A stretch of DNA of 64,000 bases from an uncultured Acidobacteriota bacterium. GTDB taxonomy: Bacteria; Acidobacteriota; Terriglobia; Acidiferrales; UBA7541. The stretch is taken from the NCBI GenBank assembly GCA_963734705.1, contig CAVTII010000015.1, positions 400,778 to 464,777 of the forward strand, given 5' to 3'. Position 1 is the first letter of the stretch, and each line of letters opens with the position of its first letter. The translations under genes and the position numbers were made by a program. Positions 2,464 through 45,792 of this stretch are shown one piece after another. The notes beneath the pieces were generated by a model, which was not told where the DNA came from, ran no database searches, and saw only the letters and a list, made by a program, of their open reading frames with translations.

Positions 2464-4980
2464 GTGGAAAGAAAAGAGTCTTCCCGATGGCGAGGGAGTG
2501 TCTATCCAGCATTGGCCGCGGCGGTGGTTTTTGCGCACGTGGCGGTGTTGGCGGCTGCCCCGGCATGGCGCGGCTTGGGGAGCGACGTTTTGTGCACCAT
2601 CAGTGGCCTGGTGGTGGCATGCACGGCGGCATGGGCGGCGCGGCGAGCGAATGGATTTGTGCGCATGTTCTGGATGTTCCAGGCGTGCGGATTGTTTTTG
2701 TACACGGCGGCGCAGGGACTGGCAACGGTTTATGACAGCATCCTGCACAAACCGCTGGATCAGCCCTGGCCTAGCGATCTGCTGTTTTTCCTGTGGATGA
2801 CACCGGCGTTTCTTTCCCTCTTTCTGAACGAAAAAGCAAAATCACAACGAATCGAATGGGTGCGCTGGCTGGATTTCGCGCAAGTGGGAATCCTGGTGGT
2901 GTCGCTGCACGTGTTTGCGTTTGAGGTGCCGGAGCACTGGAACATCCAGGGATTTTCGTTCGAGAGACTGGAGTTTGTGGCCACGTGCATTCGCAATGTT
3001 GGACTGGTGGCCTTGTTCGCCTGGCGGTCGAACCGTGCGCGGGAGAAGCAGGCAAAATCGCTTTTCGGGAGGATGGCGCTTTTTCTGGGGGCGTTCAGCC
3101 TGGCGGAATGCTCGTATCTCTACCTTCAGGTGTTCGAGAGGCTGCGGGTGGCTTCGTTCTGGGATCTGCCCTGGACGATATCGATGGCGTTGGGGACCGT
3201 GCTGATATTTGCGTCGAGTCCCGCCGATATCGTGGCGCGGGAGGAAGCGCCGCGGGCCAAGAAACGCGAACGGTTGTATGCGCGGGCGGCCTTGAAGCTG
3301 GTGCCGCTGTTCTTCCCGATGGCGGTACTTCTGATGGCGGCGCATATCGCCGAGCAGCAATTTGCGATCGCGGTGATTGCAGTGCTGGCATCATTTGCAT
3401 GTTCCAGCGCAAGGATTGTGCTGACCGAGCGGCAACAGGTGCGTTCGGATGCGGCGCTGGGGGAGCGGAACGCGCTGCTGAAATCGGTGTTTGAAGGCAC
3501 TGGTGACGCCGTTTTCGTGAAGGATGCGGGGGGCCGGTATTTGATTGTGAACAAGCAGGTGGCGGCGTTCTTCGAGAGGCCGATTGAGGAAATTATCGGA
3601 AAGACGGCGTTTGAACTGACAGATGCGGAATCCGCGCGGAACCTGACGAAGTATGACGACAAGATTCTGGAGACCGGGGGGAGCAATACGGTTGATTTTC
3701 AATTGCTACAGGAAGGAACGCCACGGCATTTCCTGGTGACCCGGGCGCCTTACCGCGATCCCAGCGGCGCGATTATCGGCGTGATCGGCGTGTCGCGGGA
3801 CATCACGCAGTACAAGGGAATTGAAGACCGGCTGCGGCAGTCGCAGAAGATGGAGGCGATTGGCACGCTGGCGGGCGGCGTGGCGCACGACTTCAATAAT
3901 ATTTTGATGGTGATTGGCGGGTACAGCTCCGTGCTGGCGGAAGCACTGCGGACCAATGCGAAGCTGCACGGGCACGTGGAACAGATCCAGAAGGCGGGGG
4001 AGCGCGCGGCTTCGCTGACGCGGCAATTGCTGGCGTTCAGCCGGAAAGAGACGATCCAGCCGGCGCCGCTGAATGTGAACGACGTGGTGGCGGGGATTGA
4101 AAAATTGCTGCATCGGTTGATTGGCGAGCACATTGCCATTTCGACGCAATTGCAGATGAGCCTGGGAATGGTAATGGCCGATGCGGGCCAACTGGAGCAG
4201 GTGATTCTGAATCTGGCGGTTAACGCGCGGGATGCGATGCCGGACGGCGGGCAGTTGTTCATCGAAACGCGAAACACGCTTTTGGGATATGGCTCGGCGC
4301 AAGGGCCGAATGGGGTGAAGCCCGGGGAATACGTGGAGTTGACGATTCGAGATACGGGCGTGGGGATGGGCGCGGCGGTGCGGGCGCACGTCTTCGAACC
4401 ATTTTTCACCACAAAGCCGGCGGGAAAAGGGACCGGGCTGGGGCTTTCGACGGTGTATGGGATCGTGCAGGAGGCGGGCGGCTACGTGACGTTTGAGAGC
4501 GAGCCTGGAGCGGGGACGAGCTTTCACGTTTTTCTGCCGCGCGATTATTCGGCTGCGAAGAAACCGGAATTCGCGGAAGAAGGCAGCGGGCGATTGCACG
4601 GCGGAGAGACGGTGCTGCTGGTGGAGGACGACGCCTCGGTTTGCGAACTGGTGCGCGCGGTGCTGACAAAGCAGGGTTATACGGTGCTGGCGGCGCGGCG
4701 TCCGCAGGAGGCGGAAACGATTTGCCGGGAGCATGGACAGGGAATTGATCTGCTGCTGACGGACGTGATTCTGCCAGAGATGAGCGGGCCGGGGCTGGCG
4801 AAGCGGCTGGTGGAAGGGCGCGCGGGGATGCGGGTGCTGTTCATGTCCGGATACATCGATGATTCGGTGGTGCGGCAGGAGATTCGAGAAAAAGGGATTG
4901 CGTATCTGCAGAAGCCGTTTACGCCGGGGAGTCTGGTGAAGAAGGTGAGAGAAGTGTTGGATGCGGTGGTGGCGCGGTAG
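2464..4980 (+). CDS. hybrid sensor histidine kinase (multi-TM sensor, PAS, HisKA, HATPase_c, REC)
   Basis: The N-terminus is hydrophobic. PAS: LLKSVFEGTGDAVFVKDAGGRYLIVN. H-box: GGVAHDFNNILMVIGGY. ATPase boxes: NLAVNARDAM, DTGVGM, GTGLGLS. C-terminal REC: VLLVEDD...LLLTDVILPEMSG...QKPF. The exact start (GTG) is uncertain. Confidence 0.9.
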   Translation: MERKESSRWRGSVYPALAAAVVFAHVAVLAAAPAWRGLGSDVLCTISGLVVACTAAWAARRANGFVRMFWMFQACGLFLYTAAQGLATVYDSILHKPLDQPWPSDLLFFLWMTPAFLSLFLNEKAKSQRIEWVRWLDFAQVGILVVSLHVFAFEVPEHWNIQGFSFERLEFVATCIRNVGLVALFAWRSNRAREKQAKSLFGRMALFLGAFSLAECSYLYLQVFERLRVASFWDLPWTISMALGTVLIFASSPADIVAREEAPRAKKRERLYARAALKLVPLFFPMAVLLMAAHIAEQQFAIAVIAVLASFACSSARIVLTERQQVRSDAALGERNALLKSVFEGTGDAVFVKDAGGRYLIVNKQVAAFFERPIEEIIGKTAFELTDAESARNLTKYDDKILETGGSNTVDFQLLQEGTPRHFLVTRAPYRDPSGAIIGVIGVSRDITQYKGIEDRLRQSQKMEAIGTLAGGVAHDFNNILMVIGGYSSVLAEALRTNAKLHGHVEQIQKAGERAASLTRQLLAFSRKETIQPAPLNVNDVVAGIEKLLHRLIGEHIAISTQLQMSLGMVMADAGQLEQVILNLAVNARDAMPDGGQLFIETRNTLLGYGSAQGPNGVKPGEYVELTIRDTGVGMGAAVRAHVFEPFFTTKPAGKGTGLGLSTVYGIVQEAGGYVTFESEPGAGTSFHVFLPRDYSAAKKPEFAEEGSGRLHGGETVLLVEDDASVCELVRAVLTKQGYTVLAARRPQEAETICREHGQGIDLLLTDVILPEMSGPGLAKRLVEGRAGMRVLFMSGYIDDSVVRQEIREKGIAYLQKPFTPGSLVKKVREVLDAVVAR

Positions 4981-5184: not shown

Positions 5185-6315
5185 TTAGAAGAGTTTGACG
5201 GCTAGGCGCTGGGGGTTGGAGGTGATGGGGATTAGGGTCAGGAGGGAGTCGGTGCGGAGGCGGAGGATGGCGAGGTCGCCGGAGGAGTCGTCGGCGACGA
5301 GGAGCATGGTGGGCTTGGCGGCGGGATCGGAAGAGTCGAATCGCATGACGCCGGGGGAGGCGCCGACGTTGATGGGTTTGCCGACGCGGCGATTGACGAT
5401 ATCGACGGGAAAGATGCGAGAGGCAGCGCGATCCGCGATATACATTTCGGAGGCGTCTTCGGTGAGGATGGCGCTGGCGGGGGCATCGCCGACGAGAACT
5501 GTATCGCCGACTTCGTGCGTCCAGATATTGATGGCCTGCACGACGTGGGCTTCGGGCGAGAGGACGTAAAGTTCGCCGCCATCGGGTTTGAGGAGCATCT
5601 GGGAAGGGCGGCCGGCAAGTTCGAGATTGGTGAGCAGTACACCGCGCTGTAAATCCACCACAGACAAACGATTTTGCGAGCGGCTCATGACGAAAGCGAG
5701 GGAGCTGGTGGGGAGAATTGCGACTTCATCGGGCTGCGCAACAACGGGGATGGAGGCGCGCATCTGTAGAGTGGCGGGATCGTGGAGCGTGAGCGTGGCG
5801 CTGCCGCGATTCACGACCACGATGGTTTTTTGATCCGGCGTGATGCGCGCTTGCACGGGTTCAGAGCCGGCGCGCGCGCGGCCGGCGATGGAGCGCGAGG
5901 CGGTATTGATGGCGATGAGCTGGTCGGATGCGGCGGAGGTGGTGAAGACGCGCTTGCCGTCGGCAGAGAAATCGAGCTCGAGGGGCGATGGGCCGACGGG
6001 AATTTTGGCGAGTTCGTTGGAGCGCGTGTCGAGCACGAAGAGATAGCCGCCTGCGCTGCTGACGCCCCAGACTTCGGGGCGGAGGGCGTGCTCGCGAAGA
6101 TCGGAGATGCCGGGGCCTGCGGCAATTTTGTTGATCACGCGGAGCGAGGCGAGATCCACAACGGAGAGAGAGCCGTCCGAGGTGGCGACGTAGGCGTTGA
6201 GGTGCAGGCCGGGGCGAAGGAAGGAGGGGCGATGCTCGCCAAGAAGAATAACGATGGAGAAAAGGAGCAGGACGGTGAGCAGAAAGTAGACGCGGAAATT
6301 TCGGGAATGGGGCAT
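5185..6315 (-). CDS. YVTN-family beta-propeller repeat protein (membrane-anchored/secreted)
   Basis: Start chosen at MPHSRNFRVYFLLTVLLLFSIVILL (signal/anchor). The sequence has repeated ~40-aa units of the type G..P..l..s.DG+.lyv.n..s..lsviD. Confidence 0.75.
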   Translation of the reverse strand: MPHSRNFRVYFLLTVLLLFSIVILLGEHRPSFLRPGLHLNAYVATSDGSLSVVDLASLRVINKIAAGPGISDLREHALRPEVWGVSSAGGYLFVLDTRSNELAKIPVGPSPLELDFSADGKRVFTTSAASDQLIAINTASRSIAGRARAGSEPVQARITPDQKTIVVVNRGSATLTLHDPATLQMRASIPVVAQPDEVAILPTSSLAFVMSRSQNRLSVVDLQRGVLLTNLELAGRPSQMLLKPDGGELYVLSPEAHVVQAINIWTHEVGDTVLVGDAPASAILTEDASEMYIADRAASRIFPVDIVNRRVGKPINVGASPGVMRFDSSDPAAKPTMLLVADDSSGDLAILRLRTDSLLTLIPITSNPQRLAVKLF

Positions 6316-6555
6316 TGCTGAAAATGATTTTACAGGAGAGTGGAAGAAAGGCGAGGGTATGAATTTTCTAATGCAGGAAAAGGTGACCAGCGCGAAGAAA
6401 TAGCGACAGTTGGAACAGGGGTGTCTGGGCGGCACAAGAGTTTTGCAATGGGGCCGCAGGCCAAATGTCAATGCGCTCAAGGCAAGCAGGTTAACGGGGT
6501 TAGTAGCAGGGGATTTGGCGGGTGAGATGCGTGACTCCACAGGGGAGTTGCGCGC

Positions 6556-8805
6556 ATGGACAGATATTTCTGGCGATGGCGAAACGGAGACGGCGGGGCC
6601 GTGTGGCGCCGGTTGCTGCTGGTGTGCGCGCTGGGTGCGCCGGGTGTTTGGGGGCAAGGCGCGCAAACGCCGCCAAAGGACCTGACCAGCACGAGCCTGG
6701 AAGACCTGATGAACGTGGAAGTGACATCGGTCTCAAAGAAGGAGCAGAAGCTTTCGGAAGTGGCGGCGGCGATTTACGTGATTACGCCGGAGGATATCCG
6801 GCGATCCGGGGCGAGGAACATTCCGGACTTGCTGAGGATGGTGCCGGGGCTGGATGTGGCGCAGATTGACGCGAGCAGGTGGGCGATTTCGGCGCGGGGT
6901 TTCAATTTACAATTTTCGAACAAGTTGCTGGTGCTGATTGATGGGCGGGCGGTCTACACGCCGTTGTTTGGAGGAGTGAACTGGGACACGAAGGATGTGC
7001 CGCTGGAAGATATCGAGCGGATTGAAGTGATTCGCGGGCCGGGCGGAACGATCTGGGGAGCGAACGCGGTGAAAGGGGTGATCAACGTGATCACCAGGCA
7101 GGCGGCGGACACGCAGGGAGTTTTATTGACGGGCGGCGGCGGAACGGTGACGCAGTCGTTCGGGACCGTGCAGTACGGCGGAAGGATCAAACAGGACACG
7201 AGCTATCGCGTATTCGGGAGTTATCAGAGCACGGACCATTATCTGGATGCGGCGGGGCTGGATGCGAATGACGGCTGGCACCTGGCGCACGGTGGCTTCC
7301 GCGAGGATTCAAAACTGGGCGCGAAGGACACGCTGACGACGCAGGGCGATATCTACACCGGTGAGGCGGGGGCGACGATTGTTCATTCGGAATTTACGCC
7401 GCCGGACAATGTGAGCCTAATTCGGCTGGAAAGTTTATCCGGCGGAAATATTCTTGGCCGGTGGAACCATGTTTTTTCGGAGCGAAGCGACACCACGCTG
7501 CAGGAAGCAAAAGACGATCTGGAGCGCCGCGTGGAAGCGCGGACGGCGGAATTACAGCATGAGGTGCGGGAACGAATTCAAGCGGAAGAGAAGTTGCAGA
7601 AATCGCTGAAGGAACTGGAAGACCTGAAGTTCGCGCTGGACCAGCACTGCATTGTGGCGAGAACGGATGCCCGAGGCGTGATCACGTCGGTGAATGAAAA
7701 GTTCTGCACCGTCTCAAAATATGCGCCGGAGGAACTGATCGGGCAAACGCACAAGATTGTGAATTCGCGGCATCACTCGAAGGAATTTTTCGATGAGCTG
7801 TGGAGAACCATCTCCAGCGGACAGACATGGAGGTGGGTGGACACGACGATTGTTCCGTTCCGCGGCGCGGATGGCAGGCCCTTCCAATATATTGCAATCC
7901 GAATGGACATCACCAACCTGAAGCGCATCGAAGAGGAGTTGCGCGGGTCAAAAGATGTGGCGGAACAGGCGAGCCGGGCGAAGAGCGAGTTTCTGGCGAA
8001 CATGAGCCATGAAATCCGGACGCCGCTGAACGGCATCATGGGCATGACGGATTTGGCGTTGGATACGCAATTGACGCAGGAGCAGCGGGATTACCTGGAG
8101 ACAGTGAAGAGTTCTTCGGACTCGCTGCTGACGGTGATCAACGACATTCTGGATTTTTCGAAGATCGAAGCCGGCAAACTGGACCTGGAGTGCGCGGAGT
8201 TTGAGCTGCGCGACGTGGTGGAGAGCACTCTGAAGACGCTTGCGATGCGCGCAGGCGAAAAGAAACTGGAATTATTGTGCGAGATTGCGGCGGATGTGCC
8301 GGAGATGGTGCGTGGGGATGCGGTGCGAATACGGCAGGTGCTGACGAACCTGACGGGCAACGCGATCAAATTTACGGAACACGGCGAAGTGGCACTGCGA
8401 GTGGAGAAGGACGCGGGCGCACACGCGGGGCAGGAACTTTCGTTGCGGTTTACGGTGGCGGATACGGGAGTGGGGATACTGGCGAGCAAGCTGAAGTTGA
8501 TTTTCGATCCGTTTTCGCAGGCGGACACTTCCACGACGCGGAAATACGGCGGGACGGGACTGGGGCTGACGATTTCCGCGCGGCTGGTGGAAATGATGGA
8601 CGGGAAAATCTGGGTGGAGAGCGAATTGGGGCGCGGGAGCCAGTTCCACTTCACAGTGAAACTGGAGGTGAGCGGGAGCAAGGAAAGCCAGGCAATCTGG
8701 AACACGGCTGTGGAGCAATTGCGCGGGCTGCGCGTGCTGGTGGTGGACGACAATCCCACGAACCGGCGAATTCTGGATGGGATGCTGAGGAATTGGTTTA
8801 TGTAG
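6556..8805 (+). CDS. chimeric ORF: signal peptide + TonB-dependent receptor plug and first barrel strands fused to coiled-coil/PAS/HisKA/HATPase_c kinase core; ends at in-frame TAG
   Basis: Plug: [54 protein letters not shown]...[26 protein letters not shown]. The sequence switches at ~7504 to [19 protein letters not shown]-box: [20 protein letters not shown]. ATPase: [26 protein letters not shown]. The REC domain starts at [16 protein letters not shown] and then hits TAG. Confidence 0.85.
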
Positions 8806-8895
8806 CCGGCATGCGCGGAAAGCGGAGAGCAGGCGCTGGCGAAGCTGCAAGCGGCTGCGGAGGCGGGTGAGGCTTTTCCAATTATTCTGACCGAC

Positions 8896-9672
8896 ATGCA
8901 GATGCCGGAGATGAATGGTTTTGAGCTTGTGGAGCGCATCCGGGAAACTCCCGGATGGAATGCGGCGACGATTGTGATGCTGAGTTCGGCGGGAGGCAGC
9001 GGCGACCGAGAGCGGAGCCGGGAGCTGGGAGTAGCCGCGTATTTGTTGAAGCCAATCCGTCAGGCGGAATTGCGCGACACGATTGTGCGGGTGATGGGGG
9101 CGCGTGAAGGGAAAGCGGCGGCCCAGGCGCAGGAACCGGTGGCAGAGCCAGCGTCGGAGAAGCGTGATGCGGCGGACATTCTGCGTGTGCTGGTGGCGGA
9201 AGATAACGCGGTGAACCAGAAATTGATTGTGCGGCTGCTGGAGAAGCGCGGGCATCGCGTGACGGTGGCGGGCAATGGGCGCGAGGCGGTGGACGCGGCG
9301 GCGCGGGCGAGCTTCGATCTGGTGCTGATGGATATGCAAATGCCGGAGATGGACGGGTTTGAGGCGACGGCGATGATCCGCGTGGGGGAGCGGCGCTCTG
9401 GGGCGCATCTGCCGATTGTGGCGTTGACGGCGCATGCGATGAAGGGGGATCGCGAGAAATGTCTGGCGGCGGGGATGGATGATTATTTGTCGAAGCCGAT
9501 TCAGCCGGGGGAGTTGGAGGAGGTTTTGGCGCGGTTTGCGGGGGGAAGGAAACAATTGTCAACAGTCGGCAGTTTACGGTCGGCGAAAAGAAGCTCGCAG
9601 ATAGCAGGAGGCACCCGCCTTCGCCGCAAAGAACGCGGCTACGGCGGGCAGGCAGAGGGAGCGGAGATTTGA
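8896..9672 (+). CDS. remainder of the same hybrid kinase (end of REC1 + complete REC2), as callable from the first ATG after the TAG
   Basis: It is in the same frame as 6556..8805, and codons 8806..8895 read PACAESGEQALAKLQAAAEAGEAFPIILTD. REC2: VLVAEDNAVNQKLIVRLL...LVLMDMQMPEMDG...LTAHAMKGD...DDYLSKP. Confidence 0.8.
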   Translation: MQMPEMNGFELVERIRETPGWNAATIVMLSSAGGSGDRERSRELGVAAYLLKPIRQAELRDTIVRVMGAREGKAAAQAQEPVAEPASEKRDAADILRVLVAEDNAVNQKLIVRLLEKRGHRVTVAGNGREAVDAAARASFDLVLMDMQMPEMDGFEATAMIRVGERRSGAHLPIVALTAHAMKGDREKCLAAGMDDYLSKPIQPGELEEVLARFAGGRKQLSTVGSLRSAKRSSQIAGGTRLRRKERGYGGQAEGAEI

Positions 9673-9879
9673 CTGAGCGGGATTATTTTTGGGGATGTAT
9701 CGGGGGTCACAGAGGGAAGGGTGGTGTTGGGGCATGATGCAGGCTGGAGGCATATGCCAATTCAACTGGGACGGGATATTCTGAGGGAGAAAGACGCCAC
9801 GCGGGAACAGATCGAAGTTACGAATCTACAGACGGCCGAACTGCAGCAAATTCAACGGGAACAAATCGGGCAGGAGTCG

Positions 9880-11538
9880 ATGACGGTTGTGCCGGTGCAT
9901 CCGAAGGGGAGGCGCGCGCGGGTGCTGCTGAGCGCTGTCTTTGGGCCTTACGCACAGGATGATGAATTTGGCAGCCGGGCGATGAACCCGATGGAGCTTT
10001 ATCACAACCAGGTGACGCGGGCGCAGGGGAGCTTTTCGCTGCGGATGTTTCACCGGTCGTGGGGGATCATGCTGATCCAGGCGAATATTGCGGCGCCGTG
10101 CACGGTGCTGGATTTTCCGACGCGGGAGGACTTTGCGCGGGAATTGCGCGAGCAGCTCTACGACGTTGTGGGGATTTCCTCGATCATCGTGAATGTGGGC
10201 AAGGCGCGGGAAATGTGCCGGATGGTGCGAGAGATTTCGCCGGGGTCCGTGATTGTGCTGGGCGGGCACGTGGCGGCGGTGCCGGGGATTGAAACGATGG
10301 TGGACGCGGACTACATCGTAAAGGGCGAGGGGATTGCGTGGATGCGGCGATATCTGGGCGAGGACGATGGCGCGCCGATTCGGCACCCTTCGATTGTGTC
10401 CGGGTTGAAGACGCGAATCATGGGCGTGAGCCTGCCGGAGCGCAAGGGCGGGACGGCGGCGACGATTATTCCTTCGGTGGGCTGCCCGATGGGGTGCAAT
10501 TTCTGCACGACGTCGGCGTTTTTTGGAGGTAAAGGAAAGTTTGTGAATTTTTTCGAGACCGGCGATGAAGTGTTTGAGGTGATGAGCCAGTCTGAACGCG
10601 AACTGGGAGTGCAGACGTTTTTTGTGATGGACGAGAATTTTCTGCTGCACAAGAAACGGGCAATGCGGCTGCTGGAGCGGATGAAAGAGGCGGGAAAGAC
10701 CTGGGGGCTTTCGGTCTTTGCTTCCGCGAACGCGATTCGCAAGTACACGATGCAGGAACTGGTGGAGCTGGGAATTTCGTGGGTATGGATGGGACTGGAA
10801 TCGCCGGAGGGAAAATACGGAAAGCTGCAGGGCACCAACGCGGGCGAATTGACGCGGGAATTGCGCGAGCACGGGATCCGCGTGCAGGGTTCGACGATCA
10901 TCGGGCTGGAACATCACACACCGGAAAATATCGGCGGGGAGATTGAGCGCGCGGTGAGTTACCAGACGGATTATCACCAGTTCATGTTGTACACGCCAGT
11001 GCCGGGCACGCCGCTGCATGCGGAGATGACGGCGCAGGGGCGGATGCTGCCGGGCGTGAATCTGGCGGACATTCACGGGCAGGACAAATTCAATTTCCGG
11101 CACGCAGCGATTTCACGGGAAGAGTCCAAGCGGCTACTGGATTGGGCATTTTGGCGGGATTTTGAGATGAACGGGCCGAGCCTCTACCGGATGTGCCAAA
11201 CGATGCTGCAGGGCTGGCGTAGATACAAGGATTATCCGGACGCGCGGGTGCGCGAGCGGTTCGCGCGCGAAGTGAAGAAGCTGGGGAGCGGGTATAACGC
11301 GGCGCTGTGGGCGATGGAGAAGGAGTTTCGGAGAGTGAATGAGGGCGTGAGCGAGCGGATCCACGGATTGCGGCGCGAGGTGGAGAAGGAATTCCCGGTG
11401 ATCGCGCGGGCGACGGCGGCGGTGGCGGGGCCTTATTTATTGTGGGCGGCGCGGAGGGAAGAGAGAAGATTGGCCGCGGGGAAGACGTATGAGCCGCCGA
11501 CGTTTATTGAGCGGAAGAATTGGGTGGAGGCGGGGTAA
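9880..11538 (+). CDS. B12-binding domain radical SAM protein (class B)
   Basis: Start chosen at MTVVPV, preceded by AGGAG. The N-terminal part is a Rossmann-like B12-binding domain (VVGISSIIVNVGKAREM...VIVLGGHVA). Radical SAM cluster motif: CPMGCNFCTTSAF. Confidence 0.8.
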   Translation: MTVVPVHPKGRRARVLLSAVFGPYAQDDEFGSRAMNPMELYHNQVTRAQGSFSLRMFHRSWGIMLIQANIAAPCTVLDFPTREDFARELREQLYDVVGISSIIVNVGKAREMCRMVREISPGSVIVLGGHVAAVPGIETMVDADYIVKGEGIAWMRRYLGEDDGAPIRHPSIVSGLKTRIMGVSLPERKGGTAATIIPSVGCPMGCNFCTTSAFFGGKGKFVNFFETGDEVFEVMSQSERELGVQTFFVMDENFLLHKKRAMRLLERMKEAGKTWGLSVFASANAIRKYTMQELVELGISWVWMGLESPEGKYGKLQGTNAGELTRELREHGIRVQGSTIIGLEHHTPENIGGEIERAVSYQTDYHQFMLYTPVPGTPLHAEMTAQGRMLPGVNLADIHGQDKFNFRHAAISREESKRLLDWAFWRDFEMNGPSLYRMCQTMLQGWRRYKDYPDARVRERFAREVKKLGSGYNAALWAMEKEFRRVNEGVSERIHGLRREVEKEFPVIARATAAVAGPYLLWAARREERRLAAGKTYEPPTFIERKNWVEAG

Positions 11539-11598: not shown

Positions 11599-11665
11599 AG
11601 AGAAGAAAAAAGAAGAGAAGAGAAAGAGAAGAGAAGAGAAGAGAAGAGAAGAGAAGAGAAGAGGA
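11599..11665 (+). repeat. 67-nt all-purine tract with (GAGAA)n microsatellite core
   Basis: The stretch contains only A and G, with about nine tandem GAGAA units. Confidence 0.9.
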
Positions 11666-11666
11666 C

Positions 11667-11698
11667 CCCAAGAGGGCACGATGTATCGTGCCCCTACA
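11667..11698 (+). repeat. REP family b (CCCCAAGAG-GGCACGATGTATCGTGCC-CCTACA)
   Basis: Near-identical copies lie at 15021, 23841 and 40031. Confidence 0.85.
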
Positions 11699-11861: not shown

Positions 11862-11886
11862 TGTAGTGGCCAGTCTTTAGACTGGC
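11862..11886 (-). repeat. inverted-orientation REP (TGTAG + TGGCCAGTC-TTTA-GACTGGC)
   Basis: This is the only copy I found with GTAG 5' of the hairpin on the + strand. It overlaps the RAYT stop codon. CCACTACACAA (11821) and TTGTGTAGTGG (11858) form an inverted pair. Confidence 0.65.
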
Positions 11887-12398
11887 GGGGTCGACCTCCA
11901 AACTGGAAAAAATTGTTGGCCGGTTCTCGATTTCTTGATCCACTCGATTGTCTGAGATCCGGAAAACGGATAATCCTCCGGGCGCGTGCAGAGTTGCTTG
12001 CGAACCGGGTTGGCCCAGATGTAGCAAGCGACGCCCTCAATTTCATCTCCTTTCCGCAGGATGTGATCGTAAAAGCTCATTTCCCATAGACGGCGGTTGC
12101 TTTCTTTTTTGAAATCGTAGGCCGTGCGCAGTTTGAACACCCGCACGAGCTCGAAGAGATTCGAGGTGGGCTGGGTTCCATGGGCGAGGAAATGCAGGTG
12201 GTCTGGCATGGCGGAATAGGCATGGAGAAGGAAGAACCGCTTGGCGGCGCACTCACAGAGAGTTGAAAGGACGCGTCTTGCCGTCGGAGGATTTTCGAGA
12301 TAGGGCGAGCGTCGATCACAACAGATAGTTACGAAACGAGCCTTTGTGCCCACGTAGCTCAGAAGTGGGAGGCGGATCGCTTTTCGGTGCACCGGCAT
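11877..12398 (-). CDS. REP-associated tyrosine transposase (RAYT, IS200/IS605 Y1 transposase-like)
   Basis: 173 aa. HUH motif in AMPDHLHFLAHG and catalytic-Tyr region GVACYIWANPVRKQL. The gene is flanked by REP hairpins. Confidence 0.8.
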   Translation of the reverse strand: MPVHRKAIRLPLLSYVGTKARFVTICCDRRSPYLENPPTARRVLSTLCECAAKRFFLLHAYSAMPDHLHFLAHGTQPTSNLFELVRVFKLRTAYDFKKESNRRLWEMSFYDHILRKGDEIEGVACYIWANPVRKQLCTRPEDYPFSGSQTIEWIKKSRTGQQFFPVWRSTPPV

Positions 12399-12473
12399 GA
12401 GACGGACATATAACGTAAATTAAATAGTATTGATAGATATATGTTTGCGCGAGGCGTCGGAGGGCCGACCTTC

Positions 12474-13845
12474 AGAGTCCGTGTGAGAACTCGTCTTGAC
12501 TGGTAATTTATACTGCGGGGGAGGCGAGGGGCGATGAGCAAATTTTTGGAATACCACCCGGATCAGGCGTATCTGTTGCCGCCGAGTGTACGGGATGTGC
12601 TGGGCGAAGGGCATTTGTGTTTTTTTCTGAGGCGCGTGATGGCCAGGATGAACCTGGACCGTTTTCGCGAGGACTATGGGAGCGAGGGCGGGCCGGCCTA
12701 CGCGCCGGAGATGCTGGCGTCGGTGTGGCTGTATGCCTATGCGTTGGGGGTGACCAGTTCGCGGCGGCTGGAGCAGCGCATCCGCGAGGATTTGGCGTTT
12801 CGTTATTTAGCGGGTGGGGCGACGCCGGATCATTGGACGCTGAATGCATTTCGCCGCCGCCACGGGTGCGGGCTGAACGATTTATTCACGCAGGTAGTGG
12901 AGTTGGCGCGAGCCAGCGGGCTGGCGCGACTGGGGCATGTGGCCATCGATTCGACGCGCATTGCCGGAAACGCTTCGCGGAACCGAATCGACAGCGAGCA
13001 GGCGCTGCGTGACGAACGGGCACGCTTGCGGCGGGAGATTCGCCGCTGGCAGAAGCAGTGTGACGGGGAGGATCCGAACGAAGGAGCCGGGGTGCAGGTA
13101 AGTCGGGAAGCGCTTAGCGAGCTGGAGCGGCAGTTGGGAGAAATACCCGTGCGGCTGCAACGCCTGCAGAAAAGCGGGATGCAGAAGATTTCGCGGAGCG
13201 ATCCGGACAGCCGGTTTTTGCGGGAGCGCGGTGGATTCGTGCTGGGTTATACCGGGACGCTGGCGGTGAGCGGGGATCATTTGATCGTCGCGCAGCGGGT
13301 GAGTCAGGAGACCAACGACAATGAAGCGCTGCTGCCGATGATCGATCAGGTGCAACGACGATGCGGCGAATGTCCGCAGCGAGTGAGCGCCGACAGCGGA
13401 TTTTTCTCGCACGCCAACCTGGAAGCATTGGAAGAACGGAGCATCGACGGCTATGTGCCGGACAACAATATGGCGCGGGTGCTGAATCGCGGCGGTCGAC
13501 TGCATCATCCTGCAAGGCACCCGGCGCATCAACGCATGCGACGGAAGCTACGCGACCCGGCAGGCCGGGCAGTCTATGCACGACGCAAGGCAATCGTGGA
13601 ACCAGTGAACGGAGTGCTAAAAGAACAACGAGGAATGCGGCGCTTTCGGATGAAGGGCCTCGAAAAAGTCAAAGTGGAGTGGACCCTGGCGAGCATCGCC
13701 TACAACCTTACCCGCATCTGGCGCAGTAGCTAGCCATTGCGCGGCGCAAAGCAATCCTCACCCCGCGCCCTGCAAAGCAGAATCCGTCTTTTCCCAGCAC
13801 CACGCCCGCCACAAAAATAAAAAACAGAGTCCTCACACGGACTCT
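12474..13845 (+). mobile_element. IS1182/IS5-like insertion sequence (~1.37 kb) inserted in a REP hairpin loop
   Basis: Terminal inverted repeats AGAGTCCGTGTGAGAACTC (12474) and the reverse complement of GAGTCCTCACACGGACTCT (13827..13845). The flanks GGCCGACCTTC / AAAGATCGGCCACTACA are the two halves of a family-a REP. Confidence 0.75.
12534..13733 (+). CDS. DDE transposase, IS1182-family-like
   Basis: 399 aa. The N-terminus resembles the InsH-type transposase N-terminus (YHPDQAYLLPPSVRDVL...HLCFF...YAPEMLASVWLYAYALGVTSSRRLE). The DDE region has HVAIDSTRI...VSADSGF...IVEPVNGVLK. Confidence 0.75.
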   Translation: MSKFLEYHPDQAYLLPPSVRDVLGEGHLCFFLRRVMARMNLDRFREDYGSEGGPAYAPEMLASVWLYAYALGVTSSRRLEQRIREDLAFRYLAGGATPDHWTLNAFRRRHGCGLNDLFTQVVELARASGLARLGHVAIDSTRIAGNASRNRIDSEQALRDERARLRREIRRWQKQCDGEDPNEGAGVQVSREALSELERQLGEIPVRLQRLQKSGMQKISRSDPDSRFLRERGGFVLGYTGTLAVSGDHLIVAQRVSQETNDNEALLPMIDQVQRRCGECPQRVSADSGFFSHANLEALEERSIDGYVPDNNMARVLNRGGRLHHPARHPAHQRMRRKLRDPAGRAVYARRKAIVEPVNGVLKEQRGMRRFRMKGLEKVKVEWTLASIAYNLTRIWRSS

Positions 13846-13870
13846 AAAGATCGGCCACTACACAAGGCAC

Positions 13871-14899: not shown

Positions 14900-15020
14900 G
14901 GGCGATTCCTTTGGGTGCGAAGAGAGGAGTGTACTAGAGGGAATTGGGAGGGGCAAATTTGGGAGGGGATTTCACCACGGAGGACACAGAGGGCGCGGAG
15001 TTCGGAGGGGGCCGGGGGAA

Positions 15021-15053
15021 CCCCAAGAGGGCACGATGTATCGTGCCCCTACA
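15021..15053 (+). repeat. REP family b
   Basis: CCCCAAGAGGGCACGATGTATCGTGCCCCTACA, identical to the copy at 11667. Confidence 0.85.
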
Positions 15054-28208: not shown

Positions 28209-28468
28209 GTTTGGGAGCGGGATTGGTATTCGCGACGAATTTAGGTGTCAGCAGAAAGAGCGGGAAGGCTCGAGAATCCAAGCAATCGACATAAAGCAGC
28301 CCTTACGGAATCGAAGGTTGGGAGAAGAGGGCGACCGCCTGCGCCGCAAAAGGCGCGGCTACGGCGGGCTGGCCCTTGCTCGCCTGGCCTTCGTTGCTCA
28401 GGGTAAACAAGATACAGGCGCCACCATGGCGTGCAGCTACGCGGAGCACGGGACACGAGACATGTGGG

Positions 28469-38773: not shown

Positions 38774-38865
38774 TTGAGTCGTGCGGGGCTGGATTGACGG
38801 ATAGGGGTAGATTGGGGAGGAGCGGCCCGCCTTCGTCGCGAAAGGCGCGGCTACGGCGGGGAGCG

Positions 38866-45628: not shown

Positions 45629-45792
45629 ATGAGGAACGGCCGCCTCCCGCCTTCGCGAAAACGGCTGCGGCGGGCAAGCGGAAGGCAGGCCCTGCGGGGG
45701 GCTGAGGGGTTGGTTGAAAATTGGGTAAAGGGAGGTAACGGAGGGGTTTCGGAGGCATCGGAGAGTTAATGATGTGGATGAGGTGGGCGGTA

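Follow-up and report, generated by a model that had tools for sequence, protein, structure and literature searches.

We examined a 64,000-nt stretch of contig CAVTII010000015.1 (positions 400,778 to 464,777; hereafter the window) from an uncultured Acidobacteriota bacterium, in which one open reading frame (ORF) joins the N-terminus of a TonB-dependent receptor (TBDR) to the cytoplasmic domains of a hybrid histidine kinase. This ORF is very probably a recently formed chimeric pseudogene and the remnant of a three-gene envelope-signalling cassette. It opens at the ATG at 6556 and closes after 749 codons at the TAG at 8803-8805, and its frame stays open beyond this codon until the TGA at 9670-9672. 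The first 316 codons encode a leader, a Plug domain and the first barrel strands of the receptor, and these are joined directly to HisKA, HATPase_c and REC sequences. Pfam places Plug (PF07715) at aa 66-175 (E 1.4e-22; 80.6 bits, cut-off 23.9), PAS at aa 365-457, HisKA (PF00512) at aa 475-540 (E 1.3e-24) and HATPase_c (PF02518) at aa 587-704 (E 1.3e-28), with PAS_9 and PAS_3 scoring below their cut-offs. Two Response_reg matches (E 9e-47) fall in the stretch 8806-9669, behind the TAG.

The receptor part of the ORF is incomplete and lacks a full 22-strand beta-barrel. Pfam finds no match to the barrel family PF00593 in it, nor any domain N-terminal to Plug, which at aa 66 comes right after the leader. 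The NCBIfam model NF053590 (TOL_0244 TBDR) aligns with aa 42-344 only over the first 288 of its 604 positions, and the score of 367.5 bits falls short of its cut-off of 645. The C-terminal 362 residues of the receptor are deleted, and the outer-membrane-protein signature with its aromatic end (...TWEF in relatives) is missing with them. The remaining part shares 95% identity with aa 1-321 of an intact 678-aa receptor (P0009), and the kinase remnant is 90-91% identical to aa 222-946, the kinase part, of an intact orthologue (P0002). The leader is conserved with intact orthologues and looks signal-peptide-like by eye, with an h-region below Kyte-Doolittle 1.6. No 19-aa window reaches this value anywhere in the fusion, whereas the intact orthologous kinase has two transmembrane (TM) segments (aa 13-35 and 157-185). 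The Plug match and the half-length NF053590 match thus bear out the original prediction of a receptor N-terminus extending to about residue 316 (plug and first strands), and the hydropathy scan agrees with its claim that no TM segment lies at the switch.

Three close relatives at 80-93% nucleotide identity (loci L004, L003 and L002), in which the locus has the same flanking genes, carry three intact genes in its place. The gene order in these and in a fourth locus (L001) is a YncE-like gene on the opposite strand, a TBDR of 678 aa, a DUF4154 protein of 198-199 aa (called as 179 aa in L001), a kinase of 935-946 aa, and a radical-SAM gene. The YncE-like and radical-SAM flanks of the window are ~93% identical in nucleotide sequence to those of L003 and L004. 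The intact receptor P0009 scores 692.2 bits over positions 1-604 of NF053590 and so exceeds the cut-off of 645. The DUF4154 protein, a family that Pfam describes as "YfiR/HmsC-like", matches NF053591 (TOL_0243) at 166.3 bits (cut-off 125) and PF13689 at E 1.6e-46. The orthologous kinase (946 aa) has the architecture CHASE8-TM-HAMP-PAS-HisKA-HATPase-REC-REC, with CHASE8 and HAMP recognized by Pfam in the L004 protein at E 3.8e-16 and 1.3e-9, respectively. The kinase had been described as cytoplasmic in type, a description that does not hold: its orthologues are membrane sensors with CHASE8, two TM segments and HAMP, and it is the N-terminus bearing these that has been deleted. A comparison of syntenic loci had been proposed, asking whether a full receptor and a full kinase lie side by side in relatives; both are present there, but they are not adjacent, as the YfiR-like gene stands between them. 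When a large protein collection was searched, the cluster of the window protein itself was followed by P0002 (946 aa) and P0009 (678 aa), two separate intact proteins from the same locus, and no intact allele above ~90% amino acid identity to the window was found in it. In a scan of species-representative genomes, a set that did not include the genome of the window and in which the matches were mostly to unrelated kinases, the nearest relative was the uncultured Acidobacteriota metagenome-assembled genome MFD06714.bin.1.68.

Compared with these relatives, the window is short by exactly 2,403 bp, or 801 codons. The missing segment spans the TBDR barrel, the entire YfiR-like gene, and the sensor, both TM helices and HAMP domain of the kinase. 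In BLAST alignments, the window up to 7504 matches L004 up to 10949 (TBDR codon 316), and the window from 7489 onwards matches L004 from 13337 onwards (the end of HAMP in the kinase). The switch predicted at about 7504 is therefore exact. The two blocks overlap at window positions 7489-7504 because both parental sequences hold CGCTGCAGG, a 9-nt direct repeat common to TBDR codons 314-316 and the HAMP end of the kinase, on which the junction sits. Looser similarity surrounds the breakpoints, in that both parents have GAGCGA...CGCTGCAGG, coding for ER(S)D..LQ in either protein. The TBDR side of the repeat reads CGCTACAGG in L003 and L004. On this side, the Leu codon is CTG in the outgroup L002, which makes the full 9-nt repeat plausible as the ancestral state. 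Shared 9-mers are common between the L004 TBDR gene and the two genes downstream of it (122 in total), and no special deletion mechanism is therefore needed. That a deletion fused neighbouring genes and that decay accompanied it had been proposed from the ORF itself, and synteny upholds this; the proposal had, however, envisaged two neighbours, where three genes were involved and the YfiR-like gene lay between the other two. Neither the deleted DNA nor its proteins left any trace in the 64-kb window by blastn or tblastn, which rules out translocation of the missing segment within it.

The features of the locus, in window coordinates and with the evidence for each in brackets, are as follows.

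6556..7504, + strand: remnant of a TOL_0244-family TBDR, codons 1-316 (Pfam Plug, NF053590 and P0009; BLAST block colinear with L004 8586-10949).
7496..7504, + strand: deletion junction, with one copy of CGCTGCAGG (three-way alignment with L004 and L003; codon view with the outgroup).
7505..8802, + strand: kinase remnant, starting at the equivalent of aa 239 in the 946-aa orthologue and comprising the post-HAMP signalling helix, a damaged PAS domain, HisKA, HATPase_c and the first strands of REC1 (Pfam; P0002).
7833..7834, + strand: site of a 39-bp in-frame deletion in PAS (alignment with L004 13682-13720 and with L003; proteins P0002 and P0005).
8803..8805, + strand: premature TAG in REC1 (CAG, Gln, in relatives).
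8806..9594, + strand: untranslated old kinase frame with the remainder of REC1, the linker, REC2 and the native C-terminus (Pfam; gene calls).
9595..9672, + strand: lost native stop and 25-codon read-through, ending at TGA 9670-9672 (MAFFT alignment of the 3' ends; repeat families D3 and D9).
5185..6315, - strand: YncE-like beta-propeller gene, the intact upstream flank, 376 aa without stops (orthologue at L004 8629-9759).
9754..11538, + strand: B12-binding radical-SAM gene, the intact downstream flank (orthologues at L003 13025-14809 and L004 15574-17442).

Three further lesions bring the total relative to the orthologues to four. The 39-bp in-frame deletion at 7833/7834 takes 13 codons, GELKNLAKDGTPY, from the PAS core; these residues are present in all intact orthologues. 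In REC1, the window reads ATG TAG CCG where L004 and L003 read ATG CAG CCG. At the 3' end, the relatives finish with ...AGC TAG TAG, whereas the window has ...AGC TCG CAG followed by a 28-nt gap in the MAFFT alignment. With the stop lost, the frame runs for 25 codons (9595..9669) into an intergenic REP-like repeat. This region overlaps repeat family D9 (9585-9616) and contains a member of family D3 (9603-9653), of which further copies lie at 28323-28373, 38815-38865 and 45629-45679. Behind the premature TAG, gene callers split off an ORF of 258 aa (8896..9672), which starts just past the phospho-accepting Asp of REC1 and has no Shine-Dalgarno-like sequence ahead of its ATG at 8896. Recoding of the TAG was considered and set aside, as the codon is Gln in relatives and the other three lesions make recoding moot. 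The reading of the TAG as a sign of decay, made from the window alone, is upheld, and the codon is present in all assemblies of the population (see below). Two other elements of the original prediction stand in part: PAS does belong in the domain string, but its 13-codon deletion had been missed, and the tail is indeed read-through into a repeat, though of 25 codons and not of ~35 from 9558, since positions 9558..9594 are still the native kinase C-terminus. The window also differs from L003 and L004 by a 6-nt in-frame insertion at ~8410-8440, in a surface loop of HATPase_c (EKEAGTGQE in those two); this looks like harmless length variation and was not scored as a lesion. A scan of 6250-9800 for promoter and terminator consensus sequences gave counts no higher than the shuffled expectation.

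The cluster of the window protein comprises four distinct 749-aa sequences, and the fusion is borne by four contigs besides the window.

L005: JGI 3300053085.
L006: JGI 3300086553; the same protein is also on record from NCBI and ENA, with a contig of 537 kb.
L007: ENA ERZ25039457, 182 kb.
L008: JGI 3300046516.

Their identity to the window is 99.77-99.88%, and each of the four shares its junction, TAG and tail as well as the deletion in PAS. Gene calls on L005-L007 also give the 258-aa ORF. The fusion is thus a fixed trait of one natural population and no misassembly. Within this population, eight substitutions of L007 are crowded into a 137-bp tract of the HisKA region (from its position 6001, corresponding to window 7980-8116), where the background is 0.2%. 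In this tract L007 agrees with neither L003 nor L004, and with L002 at only three sites. The tract probably reflects gene conversion from a paralogous kinase.

The sequence of events may be pictured as follows. The ancestor would have carried, on one strand, genes for a TOL_0244 TBDR in the outer membrane (678 aa), a periplasmic TOL_0243 YfiR-like protein (198 aa) and a hybrid kinase in the inner membrane (CHASE8-TM-HAMP-PAS-HisKA-HATPase_c-REC-REC, 946 aa). A single event of illegitimate recombination or replication slippage between the copies of CGCTGCAGG probably accounts for the loss of 2,403 bp. As this length happens to be divisible by three, the frame passes from TBDR codon 316 straight to kinase codon 239. 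Lost with this segment were the barrel that would hold the plug in the outer membrane, the YfiR-like partner, and the sensor, membrane anchors and HAMP domain of the kinase. The 39-bp deletion in PAS, the change from CAG to TAG and the loss of the stop presumably came afterwards or around the same time. Any product made would be directed by the TBDR leader to the Sec pathway; it would have no barrel to fold, and its kinase core would end up outside the cytoplasm, without ATP. Such a product is most likely functionless and degraded.

Four further proteins that join Plug to kinase domains were found in other lineages. Their breakpoints, mapped onto P0009 for the receptor and P0002 for the kinase, compare with those of the window as follows.

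Window fusion: TBDR 316, kinase 239, right after HAMP.
P0136: TBDR ~166, kinase ~503, without HisKA, the phospho-acceptor domain.
P0008 (L009 8001-10637): TBDR ~260, kinase ~206, in the middle of HAMP.
P0007 (L010 8001-11648): TBDR ~462, kinase ~184, at the start of HAMP.
P0085: TBDR 678 (entire), kinase ~381, with the ORF stopping at kinase ~528.

The four lie in unrelated genomic neighbourhoods, and in each of them the YfiR-like gene, CHASE8 and both TM helices are deleted. The reading frames of P0007 and P0008 run through both REC domains without interruption, while in P0085 the HATPase_c and receiver part is called as an ORF of its own (396 aa) directly downstream. The five junctions differ, and several wreck essential domains, which argues for five separate accidents and against a conserved architecture. 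Five lineages is a lower bound; a concatenated query of Plug and kinase core, which did not list even the window protein, added only P0136. The cassette seems to be deletion-prone, or often dispensable, in Acidobacteriota.

Several observations weigh against the locus being a pseudogene. In a Nei-Gojobori estimate of the ratio of non-synonymous to synonymous substitution rates (dN/dS, or omega), with L002 as the outgroup, omega on the window branch is not raised: the TBDR and kinase remnants both give 0.10, and the intact flanking genes range from 0.09 to 0.12 (YncE-like 0.11, radical SAM 0.09). The catalytic motifs are all kept, namely HEIRTP, NAIKFT, DTGVG and GGTGLGL of the H, N, G1 and G2 boxes, along with both receiver Asp residues. 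Polymorphism within the fusion-bearing population is not enriched for non-synonymous changes either (18 sites, eight of them in the L007 tract, and the remainder four non-synonymous to six synonymous), in a sample too small to interpret. That in-frame fusions recur in as many as five lineages could, moreover, hint at selection. Low omega and intact motifs fit a very recent inactivation, yet by themselves they leave room for continuing constraint, and dN/dS gives no proof of function loss. The lack of excess amino acid change on a branch with dS of ~0.13 suggests that any neutral period would make up only a small fraction of it, at a rough estimate no more than ~5%, and that the lesions would be recent. 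The case for loss of function is made instead by the topology of the product and by the number of lesions: the exported leader and plug lack a barrel, the kinase has neither anchor nor input, PAS is damaged, and a stop codon cuts the receiver. In-frame recurrence is to be expected from ascertainment, because the searches need both halves in one protein and only in-frame deletions are detectable.

These same observations bear on the alternatives. We regard it as unlikely that part of the remnant still works, either as a soluble, sensor-less kinase core translated from an internal start or, through the 258-aa ORF, as a stand-alone receiver (REC2). The kinase motifs and the Asp and Lys motifs of REC2 are intact, dN/dS is not elevated, three of the six synonymous polymorphisms outside the L007 tract fall in the REC region, and the 258-aa ORF is among the gene calls of every assembly. 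Yet 13 residues of the PAS core are gone, and the ORF at 8896 starts right after the REC1 phospho-Asp, with no Shine-Dalgarno-like sequence upstream and a C-terminus made of read-through repeat, while recency explains the low dN/dS equally well. A decidedly unlikely variant is that the repeated loss of the YfiR-like protein and of CHASE8 with its TM helices represents a recurrently selected rewiring or silencing of an envelope-signalling cassette. We retain it in view of the low dN/dS, the preserved catalytic motifs and the two fusions without interruption, P0007 and P0008; were it true, the chimera, or a soluble kinase initiated internally, would keep some activity. Recurrent loss-of-function mutation of yfiR in Pseudomonas offers a possible parallel.

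The original prediction had raised a new sensor architecture as its own alternative, in which a truncated, barrel-less plug serves as a periplasmic sensor for a kinase; in a wider form of this reading, the recurrent Plug-kinase fusions would be an emerging family. The in-frame fusions in five lineages, the two uninterrupted examples with both REC domains and the absence of a non-synonymous excess in the remnant all speak for it. We nevertheless find it very improbable. No TM segment connects an exported plug with a cytoplasmic kinase, and no two fusions share a breakpoint, the cuts falling in the barrel, in HAMP, in PAS or within the kinase proper (HisKA is missing from P0136). The version in the window is further impaired by the damage to PAS, the nonsense codon and the loss of the native stop. 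A protein-database search had been suggested as a way to recognize a conserved family; the exact architecture turned up in one population only, at 99.77% identity or more, and the recurrence of in-frame fusions elsewhere is a matter of ascertainment. That the gene is an artefact, through a chimeric join in the assembly or a miscalled base giving the TAG, has a next to negligible chance of being true. The source is evidently a metagenome-assembled genome and the junction sits on a short repeat, but assemblers work with k-mers far longer than 9 nt, and the colinearity of the flanks with those of relatives is perfect. The 39-bp deletion and the junction, like the TAG and the tail, are common to five assemblies that were made independently and come from two data sources and at least four samples. 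Our preferred reading remains that of a chimeric pseudogene of recent origin.

Of the known systems, the closest is the TOL_0244/TOL_0243 cassette (NF053590 and NF053591). Window codons 1-316 are the N-terminal half of its receptor, and the relatives keep the complete pair, followed by the CHASE8-HAMP hybrid kinase. The window has neither the barrel, the YfiR-like gene nor CHASE8, TM and HAMP, and its receptor part falls below the family cut-off. Our literature search found no functional paper on the TBDR/YfiR-like/CHASE8-kinase cassette. On its Pfam hit, we take CHASE8 to be the periplasmic domain of YfiN type. The ancestral cassette resembles in outline the YfiBNR (TpbB) system of Pseudomonas aeruginosa in having an outer-membrane component, a periplasmic YfiR-family protein and an inner-membrane signaller with CHASE8 and HAMP. 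In that system, YfiB sequesters YfiR, which otherwise represses YfiN (PMC2837407; PMC3375315; PMC4655355; PMC4887326). The ancestral cassette differs in having a TBDR instead of the lipoprotein YfiB, and a hybrid histidine kinase as its output where YfiN is a diguanylate cyclase. As the window lacks the YfiR-like and CHASE8 parts, no YfiBNR-like mechanism can operate there.

With kinases of the BarA, TorS and ArcB type, the window shares the HisKA-HATPase_c-REC core. Its best NCBIfam matches over aa 461-747 are to BarA (E 1e-102, 344.7 bits against a cut-off of 890) and TorS (E 2e-100, 337.6 against 676.5), both below the equivalog cut-offs; it differs from these kinases in that it lacks an HPt domain as well as a membrane input and is interrupted in REC1. 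TonB-dependent transducers of the FecA and FpvA type have an N-terminal signalling extension, a separate anti-sigma factor and a full barrel. A TBDR is tied to signalling in both cases, but the window has neither the extension, by Pfam, nor the barrel. Chimeric pseudogenes that arise by microhomology-mediated deletion between co-oriented genes are part of general gene decay in bacteria. The window matches this class in its direct-repeat deletion, in-frame chimera, nonsense and indel lesions, and syntenic intact orthologues; its sole oddity is that similar independent deletions of the same cassette occurred in at least four other lineages. As it now stands, the locus is most likely an ordinary deletion-generated chimeric pseudogene and lies outside the TBDR and kinase families.

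Other elements were observed around the locus. A paralogous PAS-HisKA-HATPase-REC kinase of 838 aa is encoded two genes upstream (2464-4980, + strand), with counterparts at L003 1865-4381 and L004 5883-8168. In L004 the gene call is shorter, at 761 aa, and includes no receiver; this copy is possibly another truncated kinase. Just downstream of the radical-SAM gene lies an ORF for a Y1 transposase of the IS200/RAYT type (11877..12398, - strand). It is followed by one for a DDE_Tnp_1 transposase (12534..13733, + strand) between 30-nt inverted repeats at 12463-12492 and 13827-13856 that are 90% complementary. The Pfam labels of both transposases were taken from L007, which is 99.77% identical. 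Where the window has these transposases, L003 and L004 have Ser/Thr-kinase and TPR genes. Some 20 families of intergenic repeats of 30-66 nt are spread across the window, many of them hairpin-capable and REP-like; the two copies of family D6 (11665-11698 and 15020-15053) are 100% identical. A REP/RAYT relation between these repeats and the nearby Y1 transposase is possible.

Annotation pipelines label the ORF as a "PAS domain S-box-containing protein" and its downstream part as a separate "response regulator"; both labels are wrong, and a pseudogene flag is due. The locus is a fully resolved case of a microhomology deletion yielding an exotic-looking combination of plug and kinase, one that metagenome surveys of domain architecture might take for a new class of sensor. 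Of greater biological interest is the intact TBDR/YfiR-like/CHASE8-kinase cassette of the relatives, which is YfiBNR-like but has another outer-membrane partner and another output.

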